Below, in pieces: positions 4,291 to 31,326 of a DNA stretch of 64,000 nucleotides. The notes under the pieces were generated by a model. That model made no database searches and had not been told where the DNA came from. It saw only the letters and a program-made list of their open reading frames with translations. Positions within the stretch are counted from its first letter, which is position 1, and each line of letters starts with the position of its first letter. Location of the stretch: NCBI GenBank assembly GCA_003697085.1, contig RFFU01000074.1, forward strand, positions 82,600 through 146,599. The letters run 5' to 3'. The DNA comes from Candidatus Hydrogenedentota bacterium (GTDB lineage Bacteria; UBA8481; J006). The translations under genes were made by a program, and so were the position numbers.

Positions 4291-5472
4291 ATGACGGGAG
4301 AAAGAGTTTACGAAACGATCGTTATTGGAGGAGGTCCAGCGGGGGCGACGGCCGCGCGTCGACTGGCGCTGGCCGGCCGCCACACTCTTCTCATTGATGC
4401 AGCCCGCTTTCCACGCCCGAAAGCGTGTGGCGGAGGCCTTACAGGAAACGTGCAACGTTTTCTCGATTTTCCCATCGATTCCGTCGTCGAGAACGCCGTG
4501 ACGGAGACGCTCTGTATGTTTCGGGGGCGGAGGACGATTCTTCTCAAGCCCGTCGGGCTCAACGTCGCGATGGTGCGTCGAGACCTCTTCGACCATCTCC
4601 TCGTGAAAAAGGCTCTCGAAGCCGGCGCGAATCTCAAGGACGGCACGCGTGTCCGGCGGCTCGAGAGAAAGAACGACCGATGGAGAGTCGAAACGACGAA
4701 GGGAGCCTATGAGTCGCAGACGGTTATCGGGGCGGACGGCGCGGCGGGGCGGACGGGCGAAGCGGCGGGTTTGCGCCGGGAGAAACGCCTTGGAATCGCG
4801 CTCGACTGCGAGGTATCGGTTCCCCGCGAGCGGTTCGAGCGGTTCAAGAGGAGAGCGATATTCGATTTCGGCATCGTGCCTCGAGGGTACGGATGGTCGT
4901 TCCCCAAGGGAGATCGTTTCTCGATCGGTGTCGGAACGACGGAAAAGCATTTTCCGGAGGCGAGGGAGCACCTGAGGCTTTTGATCGCGCGGCACGAGTC
5001 GTTACGCGGCGCGAAGGTGTTGGATACCCGCGGCGCTCCGTTGCCGTTCTGGAAGGGGTTCGAACCTCTTGCGCGGCAAGGAGTTTTTCTTGTCGGAGAC
5101 GCGGCCGGGCTCGTCGATCCGCTTTCCGGCGAGGGGATCTCTTACGCGATCCGTTCCGGGATTTTGGCGGCGCGGTTCGTGGACGAAAAAATTTCGGGGG
5201 GGGCGAATGCGGAGGGGGGGTATACGGAAACCGTCGAGAAGGAGATTTCCCGGGGATTTGCCTTTGCGCTGAGGCTGGCGGAGATATTCTTCACGCATCC
5301 GCGGCTTTGTTATTTCATCGGAGTTCGTTCGATCAGCGTGAACAATGTCTTTGCACGGCTGATCTCCGGAGAAATCGATTACGCGCAACTCTACGAGGAA
5401 CTGGCGGCTTCGTTTCCCGGCCGCGTTTATCGCGCGCTCAAACCGGTTCTCAAGAGGTGGAAGGCAGCGTGA
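4291..5472 (+). CDS. geranylgeranyl reductase family FAD-dependent oxidoreductase
   Basis: N-terminal Rossmann fold YETIVIGGGPAGATAARRLALAG and the GG-reductase-type CGGGL motif. A GDAAG FAD-binding block is present. Confidence 0.8.
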   Translation: MTGERVYETIVIGGGPAGATAARRLALAGRHTLLIDAARFPRPKACGGGLTGNVQRFLDFPIDSVVENAVTETLCMFRGRRTILLKPVGLNVAMVRRDLFDHLLVKKALEAGANLKDGTRVRRLERKNDRWRVETTKGAYESQTVIGADGAAGRTGEAAGLRREKRLGIALDCEVSVPRERFERFKRRAIFDFGIVPRGYGWSFPKGDRFSIGVGTTEKHFPEAREHLRLLIARHESLRGAKVLDTRGAPLPFWKGFEPLARQGVFLVGDAAGLVDPLSGEGISYAIRSGILAARFVDEKISGGANAEGGYTETVEKEISRGFAFALRLAEIFFTHPRLCYFIGVRSISVNNVFARLISGEIDYAQLYEELAASFPGRVYRALKPVLKRWKAA

Positions 5473-6871: not shown

Positions 6872-7624
6872 TTATTTCTCCGTCTTCGTGGTCTCTTCTT
6901 CGGAGGCCTTATCCTTTGCCCTTCCCGAGGCTTTCCGAGGAGCGCGGGTTCGCTTTCCCGCGCGTTTCCTGGGAACGGATTTCTTCGGCGGACTTTCCGC
7001 CAAAGCCGTGATTCCCGCCAGCGTTCGGTCGCCGATATCGACCATCAAGCGAAAATCACGGGGAAAATAGACATCGACCCGGGAACCGAAAAGGATGATT
7101 CCGAAACGTTCCCCTTGCCGCACAACATCCCCCGGCTCCGGCCGACAAACGATCTGGCGTGCGACGAGGCCGGCGACCTGACGCACCGCCGTCTTGAATT
7201 CCCCCTCGATTCCCAGCGTGGCGCGGCGGTTCTCCTCGGAGGCCCGATCGTCCCAAGCCGCCAGGAACGTTCCCTCGGAGCGCGACTTATGGATGACGGT
7301 ACCGTCCACGGGATTCCGATTCACATGGCAATCCGCGAGGCTCATAAAGATCGAGACGCGGCGCACGGGTTCGTTGAAGAATTCCGGTAGTTCGACTTCG
7401 TCGATTCGGATGATCTTACCGTCGGCCGGGGCCAAGACCCCGTTTTCGATTGGAATGATCATTCTGTCGGGATCCCGGAGGAACCATCCCAAGCCGGCGC
7501 TCAAAAGCGTGCCCAGCGTTCCAAGTCTGCGGAGGAAACGCGAGCCGGAGAGGAGGAAGACCAAGGACGCCACCGCGGTTCCAAAGACATAAGGCTGCCC
7601 TTCCCGGGCGATCGGGATTTTCAT
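6872..7624 (-). CDS. psd: phosphatidylserine decarboxylase proenzyme (short form)
   Basis: The GKIIRIDEV...HVNRNPVDGTV...FGSRVDVYFP blocks, including the GS-type self-cleavage region, match Psd. It sits 3 nt from pssA on the same strand, forming an operon. Confidence 0.8.
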   Translation of the reverse strand: MKIPIAREGQPYVFGTAVASLVFLLSGSRFLRRLGTLGTLLSAGLGWFLRDPDRMIIPIENGVLAPADGKIIRIDEVELPEFFNEPVRRVSIFMSLADCHVNRNPVDGTVIHKSRSEGTFLAAWDDRASEENRRATLGIEGEFKTAVRQVAGLVARQIVCRPEPGDVVRQGERFGIILFGSRVDVYFPRDFRLMVDIGDRTLAGITALAESPPKKSVPRKRAGKRTRAPRKASGRAKDKASEEETTKTEK

Positions 7625-7990
7625 CTTTCCTCGCTTTCCTCCCTGTCCGAACGGGATTTTTCCTGCTGTCGAACACTATATAGGACGACTATCTCGATGC
7701 AAGGAAAAAGGGGAAATGGAGAAAGGCGCAGTTTTGACTTGTAGGTAGGTTTGGACAGTCGCAAACGCCTTGGAACGGGTTCACGAGCCGTTGGAAATTC
7801 CCAGGGATGGACCTTGAGGTGTATGCCTCGGCGGGGTGGGACGGACGAGGGCATCCGCCCCCTCCACTGCTGATTCACCGATGGAGGTCCCGACGTCCTC
7901 GCCGGGATGAGCACGGAAGAGAAAAAGCGCGGTAGCGTCTTTTTCCGGCCCTACTCCTGCCTTCGCCCCCGTCCTTGATCCTTCTCCTTT

Positions 7991-8030
7991 TTGCCCTTGT
8001 GCTTGCCCTTGCCGCTGCCCTTGCCCTCCC
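7991..8030. repeat. degenerate hexanucleotide tandem repeat (GCCCTT-like, about 6 units) inside a 1.1-kb non-coding region
   Basis: The string tgcccttg tgcttg cccttg ccgctg cccttg ccctcc is visible directly in the sequence. Confidence 0.4.
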
Positions 8031-8710
8031 TGTTACGCTGGCCGGGTGACTACCTACAAAATAAAATCGCACCCGGGGAAGAGGACAAATTGTTGGCGGG
8101 ATGTTCAATTTCGTGAATAAGCCTTTTTCGGATCGGGTATCTTGTCCACAGGAGTGGTGCGCAGGTTCTCCACCCCTCGGATGCGAGGGCGGGCGAGGAC
8201 GCCCGGGCCTGGTGTCATTTCGAGGAGGGCGTGGACCGACACCTCCCCTGTCATTCCGAGAGAGGCGGCGCGGAGCGATGCCGAAGAGGAATCCCCAAAG
8301 ATCGTCAGCAACAACGTTATTTTCCCTCGCCCCGCCGGGGCCCCGCCTGCCGCGGCGCATCGCGGCGCAGGCAGGGAGGGCCGGGCTGATGAGGCGCCCC
8401 CGGCTGCAAGATACCTCGGGAAGGGATCCCCCACGGAGCCTATCCCGAGCGAATGCGAGGGATTCGAAATGACAAGAGAGACCCCGGCGGCGGTACCGAG
8501 GCATGCTCAGACGAGGGCGCGGAAAACGCGTGGCTTTTCCCGGAAGTGCAGGCATCTTGCCTGCAAGAACGGCTTCGTAAACGCTTCCCTTTCGGCAGCG
8601 TTCTTTCTTTCCCGTGACCGAGGGACCTAGTAGAGTCTGGGAAAGAAAAAGGAGCGTTTCGGCCTTCGGTATCGGCCGAGTCTTTTCGAGAAAGCAGGAA
8701 GGAGAGAGAA

Positions 8711-11254
8711 ATGGAACGGGACGGAATTAAGCGGAAACGTCGGTGGCGTGGAGTCGGTCGAACGAAAGGCGCGGGTTTGTGTACCATCGGGGATTCCACC
8801 GGGGTTTCGGCCTTGATTGTCTGTTTTCTGTTTGCGTTGAGTTTCCGGGCGTGCGCCCCCTTGTCGGCGAAGACCGAGGGAACAGCCGTGCCGGATTCCG
8901 GTTCGGCCGCCGCGCCTTCCAAAGAGGCGGGTCTTTCGTCCGCTGCGGGTTCCTTCTTCGGATGGATTCCCGTGCAATACGCGACGGCGGGGGTCGAGTC
9001 ATCGTTGGACTTGAAGCGGTTCCTTGCGGTCGGCTCGCAGGGAAGCCTTCGTGTAGAAAATGGTCCGGACTACAGAGCCTCGATCGATACGATGAACGGG
9101 GTTCTTCATCTTACTCCTTCGAAATACCGGCAGGGATTGCTCGAGATTCCGCTGATTTTCGAGAATGGCGGAGAAGAGAAGCGGACGGTAATCGAGTTTG
9201 TGGTGGTGCGCCGGGCCGCACACCGTTTTCGGTATGAACCGGGGCATAAGATTGATCGGGCCGTGGTGGCGGGTTCCTTCAACGGTTGGAATCAGGGGGC
9301 GACGGTCCTGGAGGATCCGGACGGAGACGGTATTTACGAAGCCGTGGTCTTTCTGGATCCGGGAACGTACCCGTACAAGTTTGTTGTCGATGGAAAATGG
9401 ATCCCGGACCCACGGAATCCCGACAAAGTCCCCGATGGTTTTGGAGGGTTCAACTCGGTTTTTACAGTAAAAGGCGGTCCCGCGGGCCCGCCGCCTTCCC
9501 TCTTTGCAGCCTTCAGGAACGAGAACGAGGTGGCGGTTCGTCTGATTCCCGGAAGCAGTCCTGTCACGGATGTCTCGGTCGTCGAGGAGGGACGAGAGGG
9601 GACGGTACGGAGGATCGATTTTGAACGCGTGGAGCAGGGAATTCGCATTCCACTCGAGAACCTCGACACCGCTTCCTGGGTGCGTGTCACGGCCGTTGAT
9701 GCGGCGGGACGGGTCGGGAACGTCGTTCGATTTCCCGTAACGGACTCTCCGCGTTTCGAATGGAAGGACGCAATCGTTTATTTTGCTTTCACCGATCGTT
9801 TTTCGAACGGCAAGAAGGAGAACGATCGGCCCGTGCCCGATTCGAGGGTCCTTCCGCCGGCCAATTTTCACGGTGGCGATTTCGAGGGGATCCGGCGGAA
9901 GATCGAGGAGGGATATTTCGATGAACTCGGAATCAATACGCTCTGGATCTCGCCGGTCAATCGCAATCCTGACGGCGCTTATCGAGAATACTTGGCACCG
10001 TACCGGTATTACACCGGTTACCATGGTTATTGGCCGGTTTCGCCGACGGAGGTCGATCCCCGTTTCGGCACTCTCGAGGAACTGCGCTCGCTCGTTGAAA
10101 CCGCTCATCGGCATGGAATCAGGGTCATCGCTGACCTGGTCCTCAATCACGTTCACAAGGAGCATCCGTGGTGGAAGAAGCATCGGGACTGGTTCGGAAG
10201 ATTGGAACTACCGGACGGGACACGGAACTTGCGCCGTTTTGACGAATACCCCTTTACGACATGGTTCGAGCCTTTCCTGCCGTCGTTCGATTTCGGAAAT
10301 CCCAATGCGGTCGCGGCTCTTCTCCGAAATACCCGTTACTGGCTGGAGGAAACGGATCTCGACGGCTTTCGACTCGATGCGGTGAAGCATATTCCGCGGG
10401 AGTTCTGGAACAGGTTTCGGGAGTATCTCCGCGCAACGGTGGAACGGCCGCGCGGGCGAAGACTCTTTCTTATCGGAGAGACCTTCCTGGATCGAGCGGG
10501 AATCGCCTCGTACGTCGGACCAAACCGGCTCGACGGTCAGTTCGACTTTCCGCTCTATGACGCTTTGGTTTCGACCTTCGCGATGCGAAAGACGGGGTTC
10601 AATCATCTGGAGAAGGCGTTGGAAGAGTCGGAACGCGTGTACGGGAAGGAGAGCACGATGGCTCCGCTTCTGGGCAACCACGACAAGGCGCGTTTTATGG
10701 CTTATGCCGACGGAGACCTGCCCGACCCGACGGAGTCGGACGAAGAGGAGGTGGGCTGGAAACGGCCGCCTCGGGTCGATCACGATACGGCTTACGGGCG
10801 GTTGAAGCAGGCCTTCGTCTTCTTGATGTCGATCGACGGGGCGCCGACGATCTATTACGGTGACGAGATCGGGATGACCGGCGCGGGAGACCCGGACAAC
10901 CGGCGGGATATGAGGTTTGGTTCCGCGGTGAAGCCGGAGGAAGAGGGTGTGAAAGAGACGGTTGCGTCTGTGGCGCGGGCGCGCCGAAAACATCCAGCCT
11001 TGCGTTACGGAAGTCGCCGGCCGATCATGGTGACGAAGGATTTCTATGCATTCGTGCGCGCGTGGTTCGAGGATCGGGCCTTGGCAGCCTTTAATCGAAC
11101 GGAGAAACCCGAGACGATCTCGGTGGAGAACGTTCCGGAGTTGCCGAACGGGGTTTACCGTGATGCGGTTTCGGGGCGCGTGGTGGAGCTGAAGGAAGGG
11201 GGCCGTTTTGTCGAGGTTCCTGCCGGTTCCGCCGTCCTTCTGGTTCGGGAATGA
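8711..11254 (+). CDS. secreted GH13-family alpha-amylase/pullulanase-like glycoside hydrolase with an N-terminal CBM48-like module
   Basis: GH13 conserved regions are GIRVIADLVLNHV, GFRLDAVKHI, LIGETF and LLGNHDKARF, plus IYYGDEIGM. An upstream CBM48/AMPK-beta-like block reads VAGSFNGWN...DPDGDGIYEAVVFLDPGTYPYKFVVDGKWIPDP. The N-terminus is hydrophobic and signal-like. Confidence 0.85.
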   Translation: MERDGIKRKRRWRGVGRTKGAGLCTIGDSTGVSALIVCFLFALSFRACAPLSAKTEGTAVPDSGSAAAPSKEAGLSSAAGSFFGWIPVQYATAGVESSLDLKRFLAVGSQGSLRVENGPDYRASIDTMNGVLHLTPSKYRQGLLEIPLIFENGGEEKRTVIEFVVVRRAAHRFRYEPGHKIDRAVVAGSFNGWNQGATVLEDPDGDGIYEAVVFLDPGTYPYKFVVDGKWIPDPRNPDKVPDGFGGFNSVFTVKGGPAGPPPSLFAAFRNENEVAVRLIPGSSPVTDVSVVEEGREGTVRRIDFERVEQGIRIPLENLDTASWVRVTAVDAAGRVGNVVRFPVTDSPRFEWKDAIVYFAFTDRFSNGKKENDRPVPDSRVLPPANFHGGDFEGIRRKIEEGYFDELGINTLWISPVNRNPDGAYREYLAPYRYYTGYHGYWPVSPTEVDPRFGTLEELRSLVETAHRHGIRVIADLVLNHVHKEHPWWKKHRDWFGRLELPDGTRNLRRFDEYPFTTWFEPFLPSFDFGNPNAVAALLRNTRYWLEETDLDGFRLDAVKHIPREFWNRFREYLRATVERPRGRRLFLIGETFLDRAGIASYVGPNRLDGQFDFPLYDALVSTFAMRKTGFNHLEKALEESERVYGKESTMAPLLGNHDKARFMAYADGDLPDPTESDEEEVGWKRPPRVDHDTAYGRLKQAFVFLMSIDGAPTIYYGDEIGMTGAGDPDNRRDMRFGSAVKPEEEGVKETVASVARARRKHPALRYGSRRPIMVTKDFYAFVRAWFEDRALAAFNRTEKPETISVENVPELPNGVYRDAVSGRVVELKEGGRFVEVPAGSAVLLVRE

Positions 11255-11269
11255 TCCGCGGCGGGAGAA

Positions 11270-11289
11270 CGCGGATTCTCCGGTCCGCG
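11270..11289. repeat. copy 1 of a dispersed palindromic hairpin motif (CGCGGAYTCTCCRRTCYGCG)
   Basis: cgcggatt-ctcc-ggtccgcg, 8-bp arms allowing G-U pairs, 16 nt after the amylase stop codon. Confidence 0.45.
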
Positions 11290-11347
11290 AACCAAGGGGC
11301 TGCTCTTCGCAGGTTGAAGAACCTGCGCCCCATCTCCATTTCGGCAT

Positions 11348-11371
11348 GGAGCGCGGACTCTCCAGTCTGCG
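11348..11371. repeat. copy 2 of the palindromic hairpin motif, with a GGAG 5' extension
   Basis: ggag-cgcggact-ctcc-agtctgcg. The string is identical to the copy at 28470 except for one loop base. Confidence 0.5.
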
Positions 11372-11530
11372 AATTGCCGTTCCGCTCGTTCACCCCACCA
11401 TCGATGCTCTACTGATGGAGGTCCCGGCGGCATTGCCGGGGCAAGCAAGGAAGGGGCAAAGGCAACGAAAATTCTTTCCTGGGAACGCACTCCTGCCTGC
11501 CGTTAGGCAGGCATCTCGCCTGAAGTGAAG

Positions 11531-11550
11531 CGCGGACTCTCAATGACGCG
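11531..11550. repeat. degenerate copy 3 of the motif
   Basis: cgcggactctcaatgacgcg shares the left arm and CTC loop start. The right arm has diverged. Confidence 0.3.
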
Positions 11551-11714
11551 AACCAACGTCCGGCAACGCTGATTTTTCGGCATCGGAGAAATTCTCATCT
11601 TTGTTCAAGTTGGAAAGAAAGGATGTCGATAGAAGGAAGAGAGGGAGAGACCGGGCTCTTTCGAAGAAGGGACACGGTCGAACCTGACAAACGTTTGAGG
11701 AAGTAGGGCGAGGA

Positions 11715-12560
11715 ATGGATCGAGGGCTATACACCGGAGCGTTGGCGATGCTGGCGCGGGTGACGGATACAGACGTCATTTCGAACAATCTGGCGAATCT
11801 CAATACCGTCGGATACAAGAGGGACACGACCGTCTATCGCGACTTTCCCTCGATTCTGGCTCACCGACTCCACGACGAAAAATTCTACACGCCTTTGCAC
11901 ATCTTCGATCGAGCCCCGTTCGTCGGGAGAATGGGGACGGGGGTTCAGGTGGACGATATCGTGACCGAGCATGATATTTCTCCATCGCTACGCCAGACTG
12001 ATCAGCCGCTGGACATGGCTCTGGAAGGGATTCCGGGGGTCAAGAGATCCTATGCCTTCTTCGAGATTATGACGCCGCAGGGGCTGCGTTATACCCGTGC
12101 CGGAAATTTCACCGTCAATGCGGACGGATATTTGGTGACACAGGACGGGGCTCAAGTCTTGGGAGAGAAAGGCCCCATCCAGATCAATCTTCAAAACGTC
12201 CGTTTTCAGCCCGATGGAACGATTCTTTACAACGCCCAGTACAACGGAACCGGCGTGAATATGTGGGAACAGCCGCGGGAGCTGGACAAATTGCGGATCG
12301 TCTCGTTCGAGAACGTCGGAGGACTGGAAAAGGTCGGATACACCTTCTTCAAGGCCACGAAGGAGTCCGGGCCTCCGCAGACGGTGCTCTTCGGAGTGAA
12401 ACTGCGGACGGGAATGCTGGAGGTGTCGAACGTGAATCCGGTTCGTGAGATGGTGGACTTGATCAAGTCTCAGAGGGCCTATGAAGCGGCCTCGAAGGTC
12501 ATCACCACGCACGACAATCTCCTCGGCCAGGCGATCAACAACGTCGGTCGTGTGGGATGA
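11715..12560 (+). CDS. flgG: flagellar basal-body rod/hook family protein (FlgG/FlgF-like)
   Basis: The N-terminal block ISNNLANLNTVGYKR and the C-terminal block EMVDLIKSQRAYEAASKVITTHDNLLGQAIN are the conserved termini of flagellar rod/hook proteins. Length is 281 aa. Confidence 0.8.
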   Translation: MDRGLYTGALAMLARVTDTDVISNNLANLNTVGYKRDTTVYRDFPSILAHRLHDEKFYTPLHIFDRAPFVGRMGTGVQVDDIVTEHDISPSLRQTDQPLDMALEGIPGVKRSYAFFEIMTPQGLRYTRAGNFTVNADGYLVTQDGAQVLGEKGPIQINLQNVRFQPDGTILYNAQYNGTGVNMWEQPRELDKLRIVSFENVGGLEKVGYTFFKATKESGPPQTVLFGVKLRTGMLEVSNVNPVREMVDLIKSQRAYEAASKVITTHDNLLGQAINNVGRVG

Positions 12561-12762
12561 CATTACCGTACGCGATGACATTCTTTTTCTTTTTCTGACC
12601 GGGGCGATGCCGACGGCGGGCAAGGAACAACGACGCGAACGGAGATTGGAATAGAATCGGTAAACACGCTCGTGCGCCGTGCCGATGGTAGCCCGAAGGA
12701 GAGCCGGGAGGGGGGCGCGTGCCGGTTTTGACGGCGGCGCGAGAGTTTGGTAAATTGCCGTT

Positions 12763-13143
12763 ATGCGATTTCTTCACACAATGATTCGGGTGCGGAATCT
12801 CGAGGCCTCGATCGAGTTCTATCGCTTGCTGGGGCTGGAACTGCGTCGGAAGAATGATTATCCGGGCGGGAAATTCACGCTCGCTTTTCTCGCGGCTCCG
12901 GACGAAGGGGGCGAGATCGAATTGACGTACAATTGGGATCGCGAGGAACCCTACGAATTGGGTGATGCCTGGGGGCACCTTGCCTTCGCCGTCGACGACA
13001 TCTATGCCACCTGCGCCGCGTTGAAGGAAAAAGGAGTCGAGATTACGCGCGAACCGGGACCAATGAAGCACGGAACGACGGTCATCGCTTTCTTGAAGGA
13101 TCCCGATGGCCATACAATCGAACTGATCGAAAAGCGTGATTGA
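12763..13143 (+). CDS. gloA: lactoylglutathione lyase (glyoxalase I)
   Basis: 126 aa. MRFLHTMIRVRNLEASIEFY...GHLAFAVDDIYATCAALKEKGVEITREPGPMKHGTTVIAFLKDPDGHTIELIE is a typical GloA sequence. Confidence 0.9.
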   Translation: MRFLHTMIRVRNLEASIEFYRLLGLELRRKNDYPGGKFTLAFLAAPDEGGEIELTYNWDREEPYELGDAWGHLAFAVDDIYATCAALKEKGVEITREPGPMKHGTTVIAFLKDPDGHTIELIEKRD

Positions 13144-13185
13144 GGTGAACGAAAGCGAAACTGAGCGGGACGGATTTTTCGAGAG

Positions 13186-13509
13186 ATGAAAGTGAAGAGG
13201 AAGAAGGATTCGAGGATTTACCGTATTTCCTATTCGAAGGATGGCGAAACCACGTGTGAAATTCATGCGCGCAATGTAAGAACTTCCGAGATATTCGGGT
13301 TCGTCGAGATATCGGAATTCGTGCAACCGAAGAAGACCTCGATCATCATTCGCCCCGATTCAGCGCGCGTGGAGGAGGAATTCCGCGGGGTCTTTCGAAC
13401 CTTAATTCCGATTCGAGATATTCGTCGAATCGACGTGCTTTCGGAGGAGGAGTTCGAGGTGGAGGCGGGGCCGTTGAAGGTGGTGGAATTCCGCGCGCGC
13501 GGAGGCTGA
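13186..13509 (+). CDS. hypothetical protein
   Basis: 107-aa ORF with an ATG start and reasonable charged/hydrophobic composition. No family recognised. Confidence 0.45.
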   Translation: MKVKRKKDSRIYRISYSKDGETTCEIHARNVRTSEIFGFVEISEFVQPKKTSIIIRPDSARVEEEFRGVFRTLIPIRDIRRIDVLSEEEFEVEAGPLKVVEFRARGG

Positions 13510-13639
13510 GACGAAGATTCCTGGAACCAAAGAAGAACCGGGTTCGGAAACGGAAAAACGCGGTGGAGCGATTCTAGAGAAGGAGAAACGTAAGGGCCTC
13601 CTTGGCCGGGGGCGCCGCGCTTTTGGGTTCTGGGGAGCG

Positions 13640-14719
13640 GTGCTGTTGGGTCTGGAGATCGGCGTGCGGCTTGCGGCCTCGGTTTCACCGACGGGCCCCG
13701 GGTTTTTCTTGAAACCTTCTCCACCGACTCCCGGCCTTCTTCACGTGAAGGACCCGGATTTGGAGTACCTTTTGTCCCCGGAAAGGGACCGTTCCGGGGG
13801 ATACGGTTTCGAAACCGCTCCGTTGAGGATTCTTTGCATCGGCAATTCCAATGTGTGGGGACAATACGTCCGTGAGGAAGAGAGTTTCCCTTATCGGCTT
13901 TATCAGATGTTAAGGGAAAGCGGCGTTCAGGCCTTCGTCGTGAACGCGGGTGTTCCGGGACATCGAGCGCGGAATATCCGCCGTCATCTCGAATACGAGT
14001 GGAAGAAGCGTTCCTACAATGTCGTGGTCTTCACCGCGGGCTGGAATGATCTTCACGCATCTGTTCTCACACCACGACTTCGTGCTCTGACCGCTCACGG
14101 CCCCCCTCCGGGCTGGATGGGGCGGATTGGGATTCTGCGTTTGGCGGACGGTCTGCTCGAACGGCTTCTCCCTCATCTCCTTGCACCCGACCGCTGGGAC
14201 GAAACGGTGCTGGATGCGGCGATGCTTGAGATCGAGAAGATCGTTCGTTTTTCACGCAATCGCGGAGCCCTCGTCCTCGCGGTCGATCTCCCGTGCAGTC
14301 TGGCTCCGGACGGAGGGAGCGAAGTCCACGGGAGCGCGGAACCGGTGGTGTATCCTCCCGTCCGGCGCTTCAGCCCCGCCGCCTACCGACGACTTTTCGA
14401 GGCGTTATCGCGTCGTTACCGCGAAACCTTGGAGAGGATGGGAGTTCCGATCGTGAAAAGCGGTCTCGAGTACGAAGTTCCGTGGAAAGAGAAAAAATTC
14501 CTTATTTTTGATCAATGCCATCCGAGCCGCGAGGGACATCGGCGCATCGCGGAAGCGATTCAGAAGGCTCTTACGGCGGGAAGGAGCGAGGTTCAGGGAT
14601 TGATGCCGAGCGTCGAGAGAGTCCGCTCCCAGCATTTGTCGGGCGGCGTTCGGAAGACGAGGGACGGATCGACTTCCGCCAGGAACCAGAAGCCGCCCGC
14701 CAATTCCGCTTCCAACTGA
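13640..14719 (+). CDS. SGNH/GDSL-family hydrolase
   Basis: Block I ILCIGNSNVWG (the Ser nucleophile in a GNS context), block III GWNDL, and block V DQCHPSREGH. The start is GTG and uncertain. The C-terminal ~50 aa are low-complexity and overlap the next gene on the opposite strand. Confidence 0.65.
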   Translation: MLLGLEIGVRLAASVSPTGPGFFLKPSPPTPGLLHVKDPDLEYLLSPERDRSGGYGFETAPLRILCIGNSNVWGQYVREEESFPYRLYQMLRESGVQAFVVNAGVPGHRARNIRRHLEYEWKKRSYNVVVFTAGWNDLHASVLTPRLRALTAHGPPPGWMGRIGILRLADGLLERLLPHLLAPDRWDETVLDAAMLEIEKIVRFSRNRGALVLAVDLPCSLAPDGGSEVHGSAEPVVYPPVRRFSPAAYRRLFEALSRRYRETLERMGVPIVKSGLEYEVPWKEKKFLIFDQCHPSREGHRRIAEAIQKALTAGRSEVQGLMPSVERVRSQHLSGGVRKTRDGSTSARNQKPPANSASN

Positions 14720-15129
14720 CGCGGCGCCCAGCCGGCGTAACCGAGAAAGATACGGTAGGAGCCGGCGGGTTCGAGAAAGAAGGCACGGACCGCCGCTGCA
14801 TCCGAGGAGAAGAGGATTCCGTTACCCAAATCCTTCGTCACCCCGGCCCCTCGGGCTCCGTCGTGAAGGCACCATACCGTGTCCCGTGCCACGGGGCCGC
14901 CTTCCCAAGCGTGTTCCGGGGCCGTTCCGCCGCCCCACGAGAGGTTCAACTTGCGTGCCATCTCCTGAAGTGTGATCCGAAGAGGGCGATTGATGATCAA
15001 ACCGAAAGCGCCGTCCTCGTCATGATGAACGATCAACACCACGGTCTCGCGGAAGTTCGGATCGATCAGATTGGGATGCGCGACCAACGCCATTCCCGTG
15101 CACCGAATTTCTTTTTCCGGATCCTTCAT
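14593..15129 (-). CDS. YqgE/AlgH family protein (UPF0301)
   Basis: ALVAHPNLIDPNFRETVVLIVHHDEDGAFGLIINRP and GGFWFLAEVDPSLVF are hallmark blocks of the YqgE/AlgH family. Start is taken at the internal MKDPEKE. Confidence 0.8.
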   Translation of the reverse strand: MKDPEKEIRCTGMALVAHPNLIDPNFRETVVLIVHHDEDGAFGLIINRPLRITLQEMARKLNLSWGGGTAPEHAWEGGPVARDTVWCLHDGARGAGVTKDLGNGILFSSDAAAVRAFFLEPAGSYRIFLGYAGWAPRQLEAELAGGFWFLAEVDPSLVFRTPPDKCWERTLSTLGINP

Positions 15130-15431
15130 GGCAACCTCGATTATAACACAGTGTCGCAAGGGAACGGAAGACGACGATCGTTTTTTGTAGGTGAAAAAGA
15201 TGAGCCTCGGTAAAATACGTTTCGCCTTCGCTTTCGTTCTTCGCTTCTCGTTTTTCGTCCGCCGCCAAATCCCAAAGAATGAACGTCAAGCGGAAGACGG
15301 CGGCGGTGGCGGCGGTTTCTCATCTCCGTTTGGTCTGTGTCGTTTTTTCTAGGCCGTTCGCGCAAGTCTGGTTAGGATGTCTCGAAACTGTCAAATTGGA
15401 AGAATGACACCTTTTTTGGAAGGGAAGGCGG

Positions 15432-25752: not shown

Positions 25753-26353
25753 AAATGACGACTCATCTTTTCTGTAACAGACATGGAATATTATAGCAAA
25801 GGCGGCGCACCTATGCAACCGCTTGCACAATCGGCGTCGGTTTTCTTGAATTTGGTGTCTTGTGCCCTGCGAGCTCATCGTTCTTCCCCTCACCCCCCCC
25901 CCCTCTTTCCTCCTCCCTCCAGGTGGCTCACTGTGTACCTGCGCATTTCCCCCTTACATCTTTCCCTATTCCCCGGAGGTCTGTTCACCACAAGAGTTCA
26001 CAGAGAGCACGAAAGGCAAGGAAGGAGAAGGGAGGCAGCTTTTTCTCAAAGAAGGCTTTTCACCCATCAGGTGAAAATAAGGGTGAACTTCCCGTCTACC
26101 CCGTCTTCGCGTCAAATCCCGCCTCATTTCCGCTTTTTCTTTATTTCTTCTCTGTTTTCTTCTCTTGTGATCTCTCGTGTACTCTCGTGGTGAAATCTTC
26201 TTCGGGGATTCAGGTCTCCCTCGTCTTGAAAACGGATGGCGAAAGTGGTATTATTGGTTCGAATGGATGGGGGGGCGCGAAGGAGAAAGGAAAAATTTCG
26301 AATACCGGGAAGAGGCGGGAAGATTTCACAGGGCCGGAAGAAAGGAAAGGGAG

Positions 26354-27604
26354 ATGCACAAATCGCAAAACCGATGGATGGGACGGACTTTTCTTTCGGG
26401 TGCGTTTTTCCTTCTTCTTGTCGGAACGGTCTTTAGTCGTGGAGAGGCGGAAGCCGTGAAGGGAGACGCGGGAAAGGCGCCTTCGAGCGCCGATGCCGTG
26501 GAGCCCGAGACGGATTCCGATTCAGCGGAGGCGATCTTTGCCGGGGGGTGTTTCTGGTGCGTGGAAGCGGACTTCGAAAAATTGCCGGGAGTACGCGAGG
26601 CGATTTCAGGTTACACGGGAGGCAACGCTCCGAATCCGACTTACGAGCAGGTCTGTTCGGGAACGACGGGGCATTACGAGGCGGTGTTGGTGCGTTACGA
26701 TCCCGCGCGAGTCGGCTACAAGGAACTGGTCGAATATTTTCTAAAACACATCGACCCGACGGACGGAGGGGGGCAGTTTGCGGATCGAGGCGCTCAATAT
26801 CGACCGGCGATCTTTTACGGCACCGAGAGGGAGAAGGCCGAAGCGGAGGAGGCGCTGAACGCCCTGGCTCGTTCCGGCCTCTTTTCCGAACCTCCGGCCG
26901 TTGCGGTTCTTCCCGTAGCGCCGTTCTATCCCGCGGAGGAATATCACCAGGACTATTACAAGAAGAACCCGTTTCGATACCGGCGGTATCGGTATGGTTC
27001 AGGGCGGGAGGCGTTTCTCGAGAGTCAAGATTGGAGTCGCGTCAAATTCTCGGTGGAACGTGGGGGAGAAGAGAGGGAACGCGCCGGTGGACGGGAAGAA
27101 GCGGCGCGTGGAGAGGAGAAGCGGCGGCAGGGCCGAGCCGTTGGCGAATCGCGGGAGTGGTGGAGAAAGAAGCCGATTCCGCCGGACCAGGTGCTTCGGG
27201 AGCGCCTGACGCCGTTGCAGTACAAGGTCATTCGGAAGAACGGAACGGAGCCCCCCTTTCAGAACGAATACTGGAACCTCGATGCCGAAGGAATCTACGT
27301 GGATCGTGTTTCGGGCGAGCCGCTTTTCTCTTCACGCGACAAGTTTCATTCAGGGACGGGATGGCCGAGCTTCACGCGGCCTTTGGAGCCGCGGAACATC
27401 GTCGAACGAGAGGATCGAAGTCTTTTTCTGCGACGGACGGAGGTTCGGAGTCGATATGCCGACTCCCATCTCGGCCACGTCTTCCCGGACGGGCCGCCCC
27501 CGACCGGGTTACGTTACTGTATCAATTCGGCGGCTTTGCGATTCATTCCGAAGGATCGTCTGGCCGAACAGGGGTATGGGAAGTACCTAAAACTTTTCGA
27601 ATAG
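26354..27604 (+). CDS. msrAB: bifunctional peptide methionine sulfoxide reductase MsrA-MsrB fusion with an N-terminal signal peptide
   Basis: MsrA active site [11 protein letters not shown]...[15 protein letters not shown]. MsrB domain with RYCINSAAL and HLGHVFPDG after a Glu/Arg-rich linker. A hydrophobic leader follows the ATG at 26354. The ORF-track start at 26177 is probably too far upstream. Confidence 0.9.
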
Positions 27605-27615
27605 GCCAGTTTCGG

Positions 27616-28296
27616 TCATTTCATCGCGAAGGCGGGAGGGCTTCCGTCGGGGAGCCGGTAGATCGTCTCGTTGGGGTAAGCCATATTGAGTTCGTCGCGT
27701 GCAAGGCGTTCGATCGTGTGCGGGTCCCGCGTGAGGCGATCCACCTCGGTAGCAAGCGCATCGCGTTCGCGGCGAAGAGATTCAACGTGTTCTTCTTCCC
27801 GTGCGACGATGCCGGCGAGACGGTGGCGCGCAAGGTAGCCCGTGGGGGAGAAGAGGTAGAGATAGGTGCAGAGGAAGGAGGCGAGGAGCAGAAGCGATAC
27901 GATGAGCCGCCGACGTCGCGCGGGGGGAATGAGGGAGACGATGTCATAGAGGGAAAGGGAACGTTTTTGCGGGCGTCGGGGGGAAGGAGGTCGTCGTGAC
28001 GGCCGGTGTTCTCGAGACGTTTGCGTGCGGAACCCGGGAACACGGACGCGGGCGGCAACGCGCTGAAGGAGGGGGAGAAGAGCAAGAGGGGAGAGGATTT
28101 TCCGGAGGAGGAACGAGAGAATCGCGAGAAGGGGGCGAAGCGTGAGGAAAAACCATCCCGAGGTCTTTCGGCCGCGGTGCCTTCGGGGGCCTCGTTGCGG
28201 AACCGCGTGCAGACTTCGCGTTCGGGCACGAGGTCGGCTGGAGTTTTGAAGCCGCCGTGCGCAATTTCCAGAAACGATGTAACGAAACGAAGCCAT
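27616..28296 (-). CDS. ftsB: septum formation initiator family protein (FtsB/DivIC-like); N-terminal extent uncertain
   Basis: The C-terminal ~105 aa contain a TM segment (LIVSLLLLASFLCTYLYLF), a coiled coil, and DPHTIERLARDELNMAYPNETIYRL, matching the FtsB C-terminal block. The upstream 120 aa of the ORF are low-complexity Arg/Pro-rich. No internal ATG/GTG start is available. Confidence 0.55.
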   Translation of the reverse strand: MASFRYIVSGNCARRLQNSSRPRARTRSLHAVPQRGPRRHRGRKTSGWFFLTLRPLLAILSFLLRKILSPLALLPLLQRVAARVRVPGFRTQTSREHRPSRRPPSPRRPQKRSLSLYDIVSLIPPARRRRLIVSLLLLASFLCTYLYLFSPTGYLARHRLAGIVAREEEHVESLRRERDALATEVDRLTRDPHTIERLARDELNMAYPNETIYRLPDGSPPAFAMK

Positions 28297-28469
28297 ACAT
28301 TCCGGCTATCGGGAGCGGAAGCAGCCGACTTGAGAGAGGAAGACGTGAGAGAGCAGGCTTTTCAGAAATCGCCCGAACGAATTTTATACAAAACTACACA
28401 AACCTGCTTCGGTACCTTGATTTCAAAGCGAGAAACTGTCCTGGAGAACGAATCGTTCCGCCCGCAATT

Positions 28470-28493
28470 GGAGCGCGGACTCTCTAGTCTGCG
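28470..28493. repeat. copy 4 of the palindromic hairpin motif (ggag-cgcggact-ctct-agtctgcg)
   Basis: Near-identical to the copy at 11348. It is followed immediately by a 13-bp-stem hairpin at 28493..28524. Confidence 0.5.
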
Positions 28494-28614
28494 GGGCGCC
28501 GGTGGACGATCCGCCGGTCGCCCCTACAGAACCGGTGGGGGGGGCGACGGGGATCGCCGCGTCCGCGTGCCAGTGTCCCGCAGGTTAGGAACACAACTTC
28601 CGTTGGAGCGAACC

Positions 28615-29481
28615 TCAGACGACTCCCGTTTCGCCTATCGTTTCCGTTCCAGACGAGACGGCGACGGCGTCTTCGGTTCCGCCGGCTCCGCTCTCGTCCT
28701 GTTTGTTTCCGCTCTGAAGGCGTTCAAGAACGGATTTTCGGAATTCGTCTAGGAGATCGCCGATGATGTCCCGGGTGGCCGAGATGCGATTCTTCTTCTC
28801 GTCGGGGATTTCACCGTTGAAGTGTTTTCCAAGGATCTTTTTTGCTTTCGAAAACCCTTCGTCGATCGCCCCCTCGACGATTCCGAGAAACTTGTCGAGT
28901 GTGTCCTTCGACTCGCCGTCGTGAGCCTTCGAGAAGGCGTCGTAGAACTTCAACGCGAAATCCACGATCCGCTTCGCCGTTTTTTCCGGCGTGAACGGAT
29001 CCTCCTTTTCGGCGTGCTCGGTTTCCTTCGGCGCCTCCGCGGTCTCGATGTTTCTGAAGGCTTGTCTTATCTGCAACGTACTCTTTTCTTGAAGGATCAT
29101 CAGAGTCGTCCCGTCCCCCGGTTGTAACCCTCGGGAATTCCCGGTATCGAGGATGTCGCGGAGAGAGGGGGGGAGGGAATCGATGCCTTCGAAGGTTTCC
29201 TTGGTCGAAGAATCAGGATGATCCAGGGTATTCGGTTGTGCCTGCCGCACGATGCCTTTTCCGTTGGGATCGTAGAGAACCGCCAAGGTCCGTGAGTAAG
29301 TCGCTTCCAGGGATTGATAACCGGCCAGAGCCTGCATGATGCGCCCTCCTTGAAGTTTTGTGTCGCGGGAATCCTTTCCCGCCGCCAGTCTTCCTATCGG
29401 ACGTTTTTGAACAAACTTGAGCAAAAATGAAGAATTTTTTTCAAGGGAGGAAAAGACGAGGAAGGCCGGGGCCGGGATCAA
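28615..29481 (-). CDS. hypothetical protein
   Basis: 288-aa ORF. The C-terminal two thirds are helical-looking and Lys/Asp/Glu-rich (FALKFYDAFSKAHDGESKDTLDKFLGIVEGAIDEGF...). Start ambiguous (29481 or the internal ATG near 29337). No family recognised. Confidence 0.45.
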   Translation of the reverse strand: MIPAPAFLVFSSLEKNSSFLLKFVQKRPIGRLAAGKDSRDTKLQGGRIMQALAGYQSLEATYSRTLAVLYDPNGKGIVRQAQPNTLDHPDSSTKETFEGIDSLPPSLRDILDTGNSRGLQPGDGTTLMILQEKSTLQIRQAFRNIETAEAPKETEHAEKEDPFTPEKTAKRIVDFALKFYDAFSKAHDGESKDTLDKFLGIVEGAIDEGFSKAKKILGKHFNGEIPDEKKNRISATRDIIGDLLDEFRKSVLERLQSGNKQDESGAGGTEDAVAVSSGTETIGETGVV

Positions 29482-30470
29482 ATCTTTTCCGCGATGATTC
29501 TTGCCGTCAGGCGATGCCCTTCCTCGGTGGGATGCACGGGGTCGTTCATTACGAAAAGCGCCGCTCCGCCGTTCTCCTGAAACGGTTTCCAGAGATCGAT
29601 GACACGGACGCGCCGTCTTTCAAGAAAGCGGGTCAGAGTCCGTTGGGCTCCGGTATCGTCGCCCATAAACTGGGTTGCCAGAGGAAAGAAGACGACGGTC
29701 AAATCGAGATCATTTGTTCCGCAGTAGGCGGCCATTCGATCGAGGGTATCGAGCACGGCGTGATAGCGGGGTTCCTCGGGGCGGTACATATCCAGAACGC
29801 GCCGGCAGTACGGCGCATAGTCTCCGATGGGAGGTTTGCGATTCCGACGGATGAAGAGGGATTGCAGAAAGCGGCCGGTCCGAACGACGAGTCGGCTGCG
29901 GCGGAGGAAGACGCCGAGGGAGAATCGCGCCGGTTTCAGCGCTCCCCCCTCGTCTACGGCTCCCGGCGGGAGGATGTCGTTGAGGCAGAAACCGTAAACG
30001 ACGCTGTCGGGCTCGACGAGGGGCGAATCGAGTTGGAGGCTCCGGAAAACCTGTTCGACATTATAACCGGTTACGCCTCCATTGATCGCCTCGATCGGCT
30101 TTTTCGTTCGGGCGCGGAGTCGTTCGACGAGAGCGGGGTAAACGATGTCGTCATCGCGGGCTCCGTCCGTGATCGAATCCCCGATGAAAAGAACCCGCGG
30201 CCTGCCGGGTCTCTTCGGCCCGATCTCCGGCCCCCGGAATCCCAGCGAGTTGTAATGCACGTTCCAACCGGGCCGTTCGAGAGAGAAGGAAGGGATGTGA
30301 GCATAGATCAGGATCGGGTCGTCGATTTTTCGGATCGTCTTGACGGGGGCGGGAGTGATGACGCGAAGGACGATCTCGACGAGAAGAAGTGCGAAAAGGA
30401 GGCCGAGCGAAAGAAGAAGGATTCGGGCGGCGAGGCGATGAGAGGATGGGTGAACGGAATTCGCGCTCAC
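29478..30470 (-). CDS. SGNH/GDSL-family hydrolase with an N-terminal membrane anchor
   Basis: N-terminal TM ILLLSLGLLFALLLVEIVL. Block I is VLFIGDSITDGARDDD. DPVHPTEEGHRL matches the DxxH block V. Confidence 0.7.
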   Translation of the reverse strand: MSANSVHPSSHRLAARILLLSLGLLFALLLVEIVLRVITPAPVKTIRKIDDPILIYAHIPSFSLERPGWNVHYNSLGFRGPEIGPKRPGRPRVLFIGDSITDGARDDDIVYPALVERLRARTKKPIEAINGGVTGYNVEQVFRSLQLDSPLVEPDSVVYGFCLNDILPPGAVDEGGALKPARFSLGVFLRRSRLVVRTGRFLQSLFIRRNRKPPIGDYAPYCRRVLDMYRPEEPRYHAVLDTLDRMAAYCGTNDLDLTVVFFPLATQFMGDDTGAQRTLTRFLERRRVRVIDLWKPFQENGGAALFVMNDPVHPTEEGHRLTARIIAEKI

Positions 30471-30928
30471 GCGTGCCGAACCTGACTACCGGGAAGCAGC
30501 GTTTCGAGCGTGGCCGGGAGGTGTTCCACGAAACGGCGTATCTCGTCGCGCACGCGGCGGTAAACATCGAGCGCTTCTTGGTCCGTGTCGCAATCGAGGG
30601 CAAGGCGCGGAGGATCGTCGAAGGGTTGGTGGATCAGGCAGGGAGCATTTGGAAAGGCCGGGCAGAGATCGTGGGCCTTCCCGCAGACGGTCACGACGGC
30701 GTCGAAGGAGACGGGCCCGAGCTCCGCGATGGTCTTCGAACGATGGGAGGAGATGTCGATGCCGACTTCCTTCATGACTTGCACGGCGAAAGGGTTGAGG
30801 CCTTGCGCGACGAGCCCGGCGGACGCGACGTCATAGCGGTCGCCGAGGATGTGCCGCGCCCAGCCTTCGGCCATCTGGCTCCGGCAGGAATTTCCCGTGC
30901 AGAGAAAGAGGATTCTTTTCTTCGTCAC
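30467..30928 (-). CDS. arsC: arsenate reductase / low-molecular-weight protein-tyrosine phosphatase family (thioredoxin-coupled ArsC type)
   Basis: The P-loop CTGNSCRSQMAEGW is the CX5R LMW-PTP signature. Downstream Cys residues (VVTVCGKAHDLC) are typical of the Trx-coupled ArsC family. A GTG start at 30928 gives 153 aa. The longer ORF-track frame to 31201 has junk-like translation and contains the palindromic repeat. Confidence 0.8.
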   Translation of the reverse strand: MTKKRILFLCTGNSCRSQMAEGWARHILGDRYDVASAGLVAQGLNPFAVQVMKEVGIDISSHRSKTIAELGPVSFDAVVTVCGKAHDLCPAFPNAPCLIHQPFDDPPRLALDCDTDQEALDVYRRVRDEIRRFVEHLPATLETLLPGSQVRHA

Positions 30929-31098
30929 GCGCTCTCCTCCCAGTCCACTGGATTTTCCGTAAGGGAATTCCTTCGCGAAAGAGACTATACCGGAAAAGGA
31001 GAAGTCGCATTTCAAAAAAAGGGCGAGGGGGACAGGAAAGAGTAACGTAGATTTCCGGAGGGGATATGAGAATGAGGTTTCTCCATTCCGCCAGGGAG

Positions 31099-31118
31099 CG
31101 CGGATTCTCCAATCCGCG
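31099..31118. repeat. copy 5 of the palindromic hairpin motif (cgcggatt-ctcc-aatccgcg, perfect 8-bp arms), extendable to about 31092..31129
   Basis: Seen directly. It lies in the intergenic region between arsC (minus) and the YihY-family gene (plus). Confidence 0.5.
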
Positions 31119-31326
31119 GCGCTCCCAGGGATCGCACCGCTTGCAGGTCTTTTTGGAGGCAAGGATGCCAGCGATTCCATGTTGGAACAGCCGCGCTCCA
31201 CCTTCGCCGAGTTGAGGACGCCTCTTGCTCGCGGAAAAGGACTCGTTGAGGGCTTTTGCGTTCGGCCGGGCTCGGAAGGATTCGCGATTGCCCGGTATCG
31301 TGAGCGGAGATAGAGTCAGCAAACCG

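Follow-up and report, generated by a model that had tools for sequence, protein, structure and literature searches.

The stretch of DNA analysed here, 64,000 nucleotides from a Candidatus Hydrogenedentota bacterium (the window), contains five copies of the motif (GGAG)CGCGGAYTCTCYNRTCYGCG, all of which lie on the + strand and are distributed over three intergenic regions. The genes bordering these regions were assigned with Pfam. The first region is the 460-nt spacer between two co-directional genes, those for an alpha-amylase (8711-11254, +) and for a FlgF/G-family rod protein (flgF-like; 11715-12560, +), and holds copies 1-3. The second region, with copy 4, is located between the genes for a DivIC/FtsB-like protein (27616-28296, −) and a DUF5610 protein (28615-29481, −), the former being preceded by the gene for MsrAB (26177-27604, +). 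Beyond the DUF5610 gene are the genes for a GDSL lipase (29478-30470, −) and an LMWPc/ArsC-type phosphatase. The latter gene is contained in a long ORF (30467-31201, −), and its true start is probably near 30928, because the LMWPc/ArsC domain begins at residue 97 of this ORF. The third region, with copy 5, separates it from the gene for a BrkB/YihY protein (31225-32226, +). Because the DivIC/FtsB-like, DUF5610 and LMWPc/ArsC-like genes are on the − strand and the BrkB/YihY-like gene is on the + strand, copy 4 is antisense to both of its neighbours, and copy 5 is situated in a divergent promoter region. According to this gene map, all five copies are intergenic, and the intergenic share of the window is approximately 10.6%. 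A Logan contig of 7.4 kb (L115) is 99.99% identical to the window at 8047-15412.

Repeat family and its copies

The first-pass annotation of this DNA reported five copies of a palindromic motif in three intergenic regions, and these copies are confirmed at the same positions by reading of the sequence (11100-11900, 28300-28700 and 30950-31300), by a pattern search and by a repeat finder. When the strict pattern is searched for in the window with up to two mismatches, as that annotation proposed, four matches (11270, 11352, 28474 and 31099) are found, all of them intergenic, whereas 0.03 are expected, and none of 100 dinucleotide-preserving shuffles of the window reaches four matches. The repeat finder, which is blind to the pattern, recovers the same five sequences as one family (D4), with identities of 76-100% to the copy at 11347. 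A sixth copy is not found on either strand of the window by a fuzzy search allowing up to 6 substitutions over 24 nt. The copies are confined to the first 32 kb of the window, with none between 32 and 64 kb, and those in the amylase-flgF spacer are spaced by 82 and 179 nt. The repeat is a real, non-random family of an ordinary kind.

Copy 1 (GGAG-aa-CGCGGATT-CTCC-GGTCCGCG, 11264-11289) is located inside a larger nested palindrome (11256-11289), and its stem begins 16 nt past the stop codon of the amylase gene (TGA, 11252-11254). Copy 2 (GGAG-CGCGGACT-CTCC-AGTCTGCG, 11348-11371) contains one G·T wobble, which pairs on the + strand only. Copy 3 (GAAG-CGCGGACT-CTCA-ATGACGCG, 11527-11550) is decayed, most of its 3' arm being gone. 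Copy 4 (GGAG-CGCGGACT-CTCT-AGTCTGCG, 28470-28493) differs from copy 2 at one of 24 positions, in agreement with the 23 identical nucleotides noted earlier. Copy 5 (GGAG-CGCGGATT-CTCC-AATCCGCG, 31095-31118) has a double foot that extends it to 31094-31126, in which GGGAGCGC (31094-31101) pairs with GCGCTCCC (31119-31126). Copies 2, 4 and 5 have no related flanking sequence outside the core of 24-25 nt. The 3' flanks of the copies read GAACC, GAATT, GGGGC and GCGCT, and a 3' flank of AACCAA is common to copies 1 and 3.

Hairpin structure, tag and strand

Four of the five copies form an intact hairpin with an 8-bp stem (G·T pairs allowed) and a 4-nt CTCC or CTCT loop. The earlier description of an 8-bp stem in every copy is thus valid for four copies and not for copy 3, which retains about four pairs and folds no better than shuffled sequence. 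Four of the five copies likewise have the paired basal stem of at least 7 nt and the loop of 2-5 nt that are characteristic of a canonical REP. A GGAG tetranucleotide is present 0-2 nt on the 5' side of the stem in four copies, abutting it in three and separated from it by 2 nt in copy 1; the decayed copy has GAAG instead. The position of this tag is that of the canonical REP tag (5' GT[AG]G, 0-2 nt from the foot), but the tetranucleotide itself, GGAG or GAAG, is a different one.

The differences between the stems of the copies are compensatory (ACT/AGT versus ATT/AAT) or else are G·T wobbles that pair on the + strand only. The predicted folding energies are −11.4 to −14.0 kcal/mol on the + strand as compared with −8.4 to −9.5 kcal/mol on the − strand, so that the + strand is better by 2-5 kcal/mol. 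For copy 2 the two values are −14.0 and −9.2 kcal/mol, and the − strand fold of copy 4 is weak (−9.5 kcal/mol). Copy 1 gives −11.4 kcal/mol on the + strand as a simple hairpin, and its extended fold gives −19.8 kcal/mol on the + strand and −25.7 kcal/mol, with a z-score of −4.0, on the − strand. The fold of copy 5 has an energy of −23.1 kcal/mol (z-score −2.1). A single-strand hairpin element is favoured over a duplex protein-binding site, because the stems are compensatory, the G·T wobbles pair on the + strand only and an unpaired, asymmetric 5' tetranucleotide is conserved. Regular inverted pairs, as in BIMEs or REPINs, are not formed in the window; the copies have a single orientation, with merely overlapping or partial inverted arms at copies 1 and 5.

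The GC skew is positive throughout the window (+0.07 to +0.30), and all five copies are therefore on the G-rich strand. The G-rich strand corresponds to the lagging-strand template, on which Y1 transposases act. The placement of the copies fits the action of such an enzyme on this template, although the three independent loci are too few for significance. The GGAG tag and the CTCC loop are exactly complementary. In copy 1, GGAGAA pairs with TTCUCC within the larger palindrome, and this pairing may have arisen from inverted copies that overlap or may hint at self-recognition between guide and target.

No covariance model of Rfam 15 reaches its gathering threshold, either in the window or in the 11 related loci that were searched, and a permissive search of 7000-12500 with E values up to 1 gives noise only. 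A tRNA-like or anticodon-arm hairpin was considered and dropped, since position 37 would be C and ARAGORN makes no call at any copy. A literature search with the motif string matches only unrelated primer sequences.

Other tagged hairpins

The amylase-flgF spacer contains, in addition to the three D4 copies, a hairpin that belongs to another repeat (D6). The D6 copy in this spacer (11393-11461, +) is 69 nt long and 72% identical to its partner at 7859-7927 (+), which was identified by the repeat finder, and includes the hairpin GGAG-GTCCCGGCG-GCAT-TGCCGGGGC (11417-11442, +), with a folding energy of −20.9 kcal/mol. A further GGAG-tagged hairpin (7838-7865, −) adjoins the partner copy, and both of these are located upstream of the amylase gene in a stretch of about 1.1 kb (7625-8710) without a credible gene. 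The window contains 15 sites at which GGAG is followed by a hairpin, as compared with 6.6 in block shuffles, and six intergenic sites account for this excess. The presence of several REP types in one genome and the clustering of REPs in particular spacers have both been described (PMC3733652). The possibility that the 460-nt spacer contains a decayed transposase (RAYT) pseudogene was rejected, as there is no HMM match and no protein similarity to the adjoining junk ORF.

The flgF promoter and related loci

The flgF-like gene has a sigma-28 (FliA)-like promoter, TCAAGTT-N13-GTCGATAG, at 11605-11632 on the + strand. This box is downstream of all three copies, 55 nt from the last one, and the flgF start codon follows after about 83 nt. 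Related loci with 65-72% FlgF identity (L116, L117/L118, L142, L143 and L144), together with their flanks, amount to about 75 kb. A box of the sigma-28 type is found upstream of flgF in all of these relatives, for example as CTCAAGTTT-N11-GCCGAAGA in L116 and L117 and as TAAACGTTT-N11-GCCGATAG in L143. No copy of the motif is found in the 75 kb at up to 5 mismatches, and hairpins of this type with a CTCC loop are likewise absent from it. Because the relatives keep the sigma-28-like box and do not have the hairpins, the conserved control element of flgF is separate from the hairpins, and from this sequence comparison the hairpins appear to be lineage-specific additions upstream of the flgF promoter. 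Neither sigma-70-like promoters nor terminators consisting of a hairpin and a T-run are found in 11000-12000. In another Hydrogenedentota MAG (L016), one similar hairpin is located 14 nt past a stop codon.

The same hairpin in other genomes

The 20-mer without its tag was searched for in 185,579 species genomes (596 Gb), and at least 115 matches at about 114 loci were listed, most of them single chance matches. A back-of-envelope estimate with uniform base composition gives a chance expectation of about 140 for this untagged 20-mer in 596 Gb. The number of matches listed is close to this value, so that these matches serve as a control set. Among the 115 matches listed, the commonest 4-nt prefixes are GTGG (5), GTAG (5) and GGAG (4), with a binomial p of about 1e-10 against 3/256; these top three are exactly the REP guide tetranucleotides and the variant of the window. 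This enrichment shows that a subset of the matches represents a real family with the REP guide tag, in which GGAG is a co-occurring variant. The longest ORF covering the motif has a median of 153 codons for the tagged matches as compared with 350 codons for the untagged ones.

When GKAG followed by the motif is searched for in metagenomes, 22 loci are found; the tagged motif has no match in viral contigs. The same hairpin with GTAG/GTGG or GGAG is intergenic in WOR-3/Stahlbacteria, Acidobacteriaceae, Verrucomicrobia and one unclassified MAG. Multiple or tandem copies are present on single contigs (L123, L125, L133 and L136), and inverted pairs of the same hairpin are found in WOR-3 and acidobacterial contigs; such pairs are present in L120 and L140, and GGAG-tagged pairs in the WOR-3/Stahlbacteria loci L064, L078, L122 and L128. 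The presence of a RAYT gene between the arms of the inverted pair in L120 was rejected, as the ORFs at that site are unrelated. WOR-3 MAGs hold both the GTAG and the GGAG version; in MAG095, a copy of each version is present, the two being on different contigs. Two loci (L110 and L137) have a sequence identical to copy 5 of the window. In WOR-3 the hairpin also occurs within longer conserved units, and in two CPR genomes (L061 and L086) it is followed by a T-run.

The tagged loci in other genomes adjoin further tagged hairpins, in which the CTCC/CTCT loop is the same and the stems are different. In an alignment of 26 hairpins, seven of the eight pairs show double changes; these hairpins were chosen for pairing, so that the percentage paired is circular and is not an independent proof of the structure. 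As far as can be judged from the aligned sequences, many stem variants share one plan of tag and loop.

Association with a transposase gene

One unclassified MAG (L096) contains a 231-aa ORF that matches PF01797 (Y1_Tnp) with 38.7 bits. This ORF holds the motif in frame, where it codes for PRGLSSPR, between the HUH motif (PDHMHVLV) and the region of SDLMQSIKG and the tyrosine, and a second copy of the motif begins 9 nt past its stop codon. Its homologues, which are mostly from Patescibacteria, are named 'REP element-mobilizing transposase RayT' and retain the peptide Q[RS]GLSSPR. In their DNA, the linker forms two hairpins with compensatory and largely synonymous changes (GGACT/AGTCC, GGGCT/AGCCC, CACGCT/AGCGTG and CACGTT/AACGTG), which are often bracketed by CACAG...CTGTG. 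REPs in frame and 'double foot' REPs are known traits of subclass 2.4 tnpA-REP (PMC6006769). Hairpins in frame within RAYT genes are thus not new, but the case of L096 ties this particular hairpin to RAYT biology. The link is provided by one MAG of a different lineage, in which the copies are tagged with CCCG and CCAG and not with G[GT]AG.

In the window, a Y1 or RAYT gene is detected neither by tblastn with the L096 RAYT nor by the family HMM on a six-frame translation. A Pfam search of about 50 ORFs, which are essentially all the sizeable ones, finds no transposase in the window, and TnpB and inverted terminal pairs are also not found there.

Discussion

The five sequences are probably REP-type repetitive extragenic palindromes with a GGAG tag, for which we estimate a probability of roughly 0.65. 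The anatomy of the hairpins, their strand specificity and their extragenic and lineage-specific distribution are established by the results described above. The comparison with other genomes further shows that this hairpin exists elsewhere with canonical tags and in arrangements like those of REPs, and that it is physically associated with one RAYT gene family. Of the options put forward by the first-pass annotation, that of a REP-like repeat is supported by the following features: the tag and the hairpin anatomy, the strand-specific G·T pairs, the extragenic and lineage-specific positions, the GTAG-tagged twins and the link with a Y1 transposase of the RAYT type. The repeat is REP-like and not a canonical GTAG REP, because its GGAG tag departs from GT[AG]G, the window lacks a RAYT gene and only five copies are present in 64 kb.

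By analogy with characterised REP/RAYT and IS200/IS605 systems, the repeat would have been mobilised in this organism by a Y1 HUH transposase (RAYT/TnpA-REP) that is encoded elsewhere in the genome or has since been lost. At the replication fork, where the lagging-strand template is single-stranded, the transposase would recognise the hairpin in its folded form together with the tag, and would cut and rejoin the hairpin element. Copies would thereby build up in non-essential intergenic DNA; the copy at 11527-11550 has already decayed. Those copies that are transcribed would add a stable stem-loop to the RNA, and copy 1, for example, could protect the 3' end of the amylase mRNA.

The positions of some copies would also suit stem-loops that are selected in the host RNA and are not transposed, such as 3'-end stabilisers, terminators without a U-tract or attenuators. 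Copy 1 and the copy of L016 are located 16 and 14 nt past stop codons, the G·T wobbles of the + strand suit RNA pairing, REPs are reported to stabilise mRNA and to terminate transcription, and the hairpin precedes a T-run in the CPR genomes L061 and L086. However, no hairpin with a T-run is found in 11000-12000, copy 4 is antisense to both neighbours and its − strand fold reaches only −9.5 kcal/mol, and a 3' end would not be expected at copy 5, since the genes on either side of it start divergently. Moreover, copy 3 is decayed, the relatives do not have copies, and a simple terminator would have no use for an unpaired 5' tag that is conserved. Selected host RNA elements are therefore an unlikely explanation, and such a function is compatible with a REP origin rather than an alternative to it. 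The proposal of small attenuator hairpins is not supported, given the missing T-run and an orientation to the flanking genes that is inconsistent. Still less likely is that the copies are remnants or ends of another kind of small mobile element, for example the termini of a MITE or solo subterminal hairpins of the IS200/IS605 type. The AACCAA flank shared by copies 1 and 3, the 69-nt D6 repeat in the same spacer and the longer conserved units around the WOR-3 hairpin agree with such an origin, but similarity among copies 2, 4 and 5 ends with the core of 24-25 nt, and no transposase, TnpB or inverted terminal pair is present in the window.

The least probable explanation by far is an operator in the form of an 8-4-8 dyad, to which a dimeric transcription factor would bind and so control flgF, ftsB and yihY/arsC jointly. 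This explanation was suggested by the near-perfect dyad symmetry, by the three copies upstream of flgF and by the one copy in a divergent promoter region. Nevertheless, the duplex symmetry is broken exactly where a G·T pair preserves the single-strand hairpin, the stems co-vary so that the bases of the half-sites are not conserved, and the conserved tag is asymmetric. The orthologous flgF promoters of five related loci have no such site and have a sigma-28-like box, and the same sequence recurs in phyla and in contexts that are unrelated. The window has a single regulator gene, which is of the LacI type (34391-35413) and is far from every copy. The idea that three clustered copies regulate an orphan flagellar gene is not supported either, as the relatives do without the copies and the conserved promoter is downstream of them. 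A dedicated regulatory site for flgF, ftsB or yihY is not supported.

With the five sequences read as REP-like repeats, a wider scheme can be proposed, although it is doubtful at present. REPs are usually described as species-specific. The copies in the window might represent the Hydrogenedentota branch of a REP superfamily that extends across phyla and has spread with RAYTs similar to those of subclass 2.4. In its proposed plan, the CTCC loop would be conserved and the stem variable, with co-varying pairs, behind a tag of the form G[GT]AG/GTGG. The CTCC loops could then be a preferred target for cleavage or insertion by the GGAG variant, because GGAG is complementary to the CTCC loop, in analogy with the pairing between guide and target in IS200/IS605 elements. 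Such a preference would explain the interleaved palindrome of copy 1 and the double foot of copy 5.

The present assignment removes a false regulatory lead, since annotation of the hairpins as a flagellar operator or a riboswitch-like element is to be avoided. It adds a REP-like family to the candidate phylum Hydrogenedentota, in which none has been described. In other phyla, the GGAG variant and GTAG coexist as tags of one identical hairpin, which bears on how the guide tetranucleotide is read by RAYTs. It is unusual for a REP hairpin to be nearly identical in several phyla, and this could serve to trace the horizontal spread of REPtrons. For genome annotation, the repeat is otherwise an ordinary feature, and what is mildly unusual is its GGAG tag together with this near-identity across phyla.

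Comparison with known systems

The closest comparison is with the GTAG-REPs and REPtrons, such as the REP-BIME of E. coli with TnpA-REP (YafM), the SMAG elements of Stenotrophomonas and the REPINs of Pseudomonas (PMC3733652, PMC2817692, PMC6006769). In these elements and in the repeat of the window alike, a short hairpin rich in G+C (stem 6-9 bp, loop 2-5 nt) carries an unpaired tetranucleotide at its 5' foot, and the dimensions of the repeat agree with the stem and loop limits used for REP detection in PMC6006769. The repeat also resembles them in its G·T pairs, which are frequent in REP stems (Di Nocera et al. 2013, PMC3733652), and in its distribution, as the copies are lineage-specific and lie outside genes, often directly 3' of an ORF, and sometimes share a spacer with other REP types. 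Unlike the GTAG-REPs, the repeat has the tag GGAG; the published degenerate tags are GYAG, GYRG, GTRG, GTMG and GTGG, none of which has G at position 2 (PMC3733652). The window further differs in having five copies of one orientation, no regular dimers, whereas many REP families are mostly dimers (PMC3733652), and no RAYT gene. The phyla from which GTAG-REPs have been described do not include that of the host, Hydrogenedentota.

The similarity to subclass 2.4 tnpA-REP (PMC6006769) is that the Y1_Tnp gene of L096 has the identical hairpin both in frame and directly after it, and that the paired internal hairpins of its homologues have a 5' tag and a 3' complement (CACAG...CTGTG), comparable with the double foot of copy 5. 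The difference is that this association with a gene is found in other lineages, the homologues being annotated as Patescibacteria, and not in the genome of the window, and that the subclass of those RAYTs is putative. In IS200/IS605 elements (IS608 and ISDra2), a hairpin is likewise combined with a 4-nt guide at its foot and the lagging-strand template is used, and the copies in the window are on the G-rich strand. These copies are, however, solitary 24-nt units, without a transposase between paired ends and without a pair of left and right ends. The CGTC-tagged REPs and the RPE of Rickettsia (PMC3733652) are also short tagged palindromes dispersed in intergenic DNA, but they have no association with a transposase, and the tag in the window is related to GTAG and not to CGTC.

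Hairpin sequences around the flgF-like gene

The first hairpin copy in the amylase-flgF spacer is enclosed by an interleaved palindrome at 11256-11289 (CCGCGG / GGGAGAA / CGCGGA / TTCTCC / TCCGCG), which is separated from the amylase stop codon by a single base and in which the GGAG tag of this copy pairs with its loop. The minus strand of this palindrome folds with -25.7 kcal/mol (z -4.0). The palindrome may consist of inverted copies that overlap, or of alternative hairpins that exclude one another. Further into the spacer, a short GGGGCAAAGGCAACGAAAA stretch is present at 11445-11470, on the side corresponding to that of a (GGCAAAA)n tandem array located upstream of flgF in a relative (L144, about 4690-4760).

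The hairpin cluster is located at the upstream junction of the flgF-like gene (11715-12560), which is an orphan in the window, with the amylase gene on one side and glyoxalase/DUF1820 on the other. In the relatives represented by L116, L117, L142 and L143, the genes are arranged in an operon, flgF-flgG-flgA-flgH-flgI-rod-binding, that adjoins recR. The flgF-like gene was probably relocated together with its own promoter, because a conserved sigma-28-like promoter is retained at 11605-11632.

Other regions of the window

The stretch of about 1.1 kb that precedes the amylase gene (7625-8710) contains no credible gene; a 226-aa ORF on the minus strand of this region is R/P/G-rich and was rejected as junk. 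This region contains the repeat D6, GGAG-tagged hairpins and further G+C-rich palindromes, such as GTCATTCCGAGAGAGGCGGCGCGGAGCGATGCCGAAGAGGAATCC near 8249, and gives no match to Rfam. ARAGORN reports a 'tRNA-???' with a 2-base anticodon at 5006-5078, within the FAD-oxidoreductase ORF (4291-5472), but this call is probably a false positive, because Rfam finds no tRNA there.

The G+C content of the window falls from about 0.59 to about 0.50 beyond 34 kb. The region at 34000-64000 contains no hairpin copy. It carries genes for a regulator of the LacI type, DUF2961, fucose isomerase and an FGGY kinase, together with fused SBP/permease ABC genes, and it encodes a protein of 3326 aa that contains internal repeats of ~350 nt (families D1, D2, D5, D7 and D8).

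Similar hairpins in other genomes

The hairpin CGCGGACTCTCTTGTCCGCG is present in another Hydrogenedentota MAG, EC_MBin.53 (L016 2677-2696, minus strand), 14 nt past the TAA stop codon of a 474-aa ORF. It is preceded by CAGGAT, not by GGAG, and may be a related REP within this phylum. In two A+T-rich CPR genomes (L061 and L086), a similar untagged hairpin shares the CGCGGAT stem arm and TCTC-type loop with those of the window, pairs imperfectly and is immediately followed by a T-run (CGCGGATTCTCCAGTCCGCGgtttttt). This arrangement resembles that of an intrinsic terminator.

In Patescibacteria-type MAGs, RAYT (PF01797) genes (L096 5121-5816, minus strand; L145 10001-10588; L148 9116-9715; L149 10001-10537; L150 8118-8639) contain two hairpins that lie in frame in the segment separating the HUH motif from the Tyr motif: an inverted hairpin whose loop is GGAG and a direct one whose loop is CTCC/TTCC. 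L150 carries two Y1_Tnp genes, 475 nt apart. The in-frame hairpins, which encode Q[RS]GLSSPR-like peptides, are maintained via compensatory synonymous changes, and agree with the published trait of subclass 2.4 (PMC6006769).
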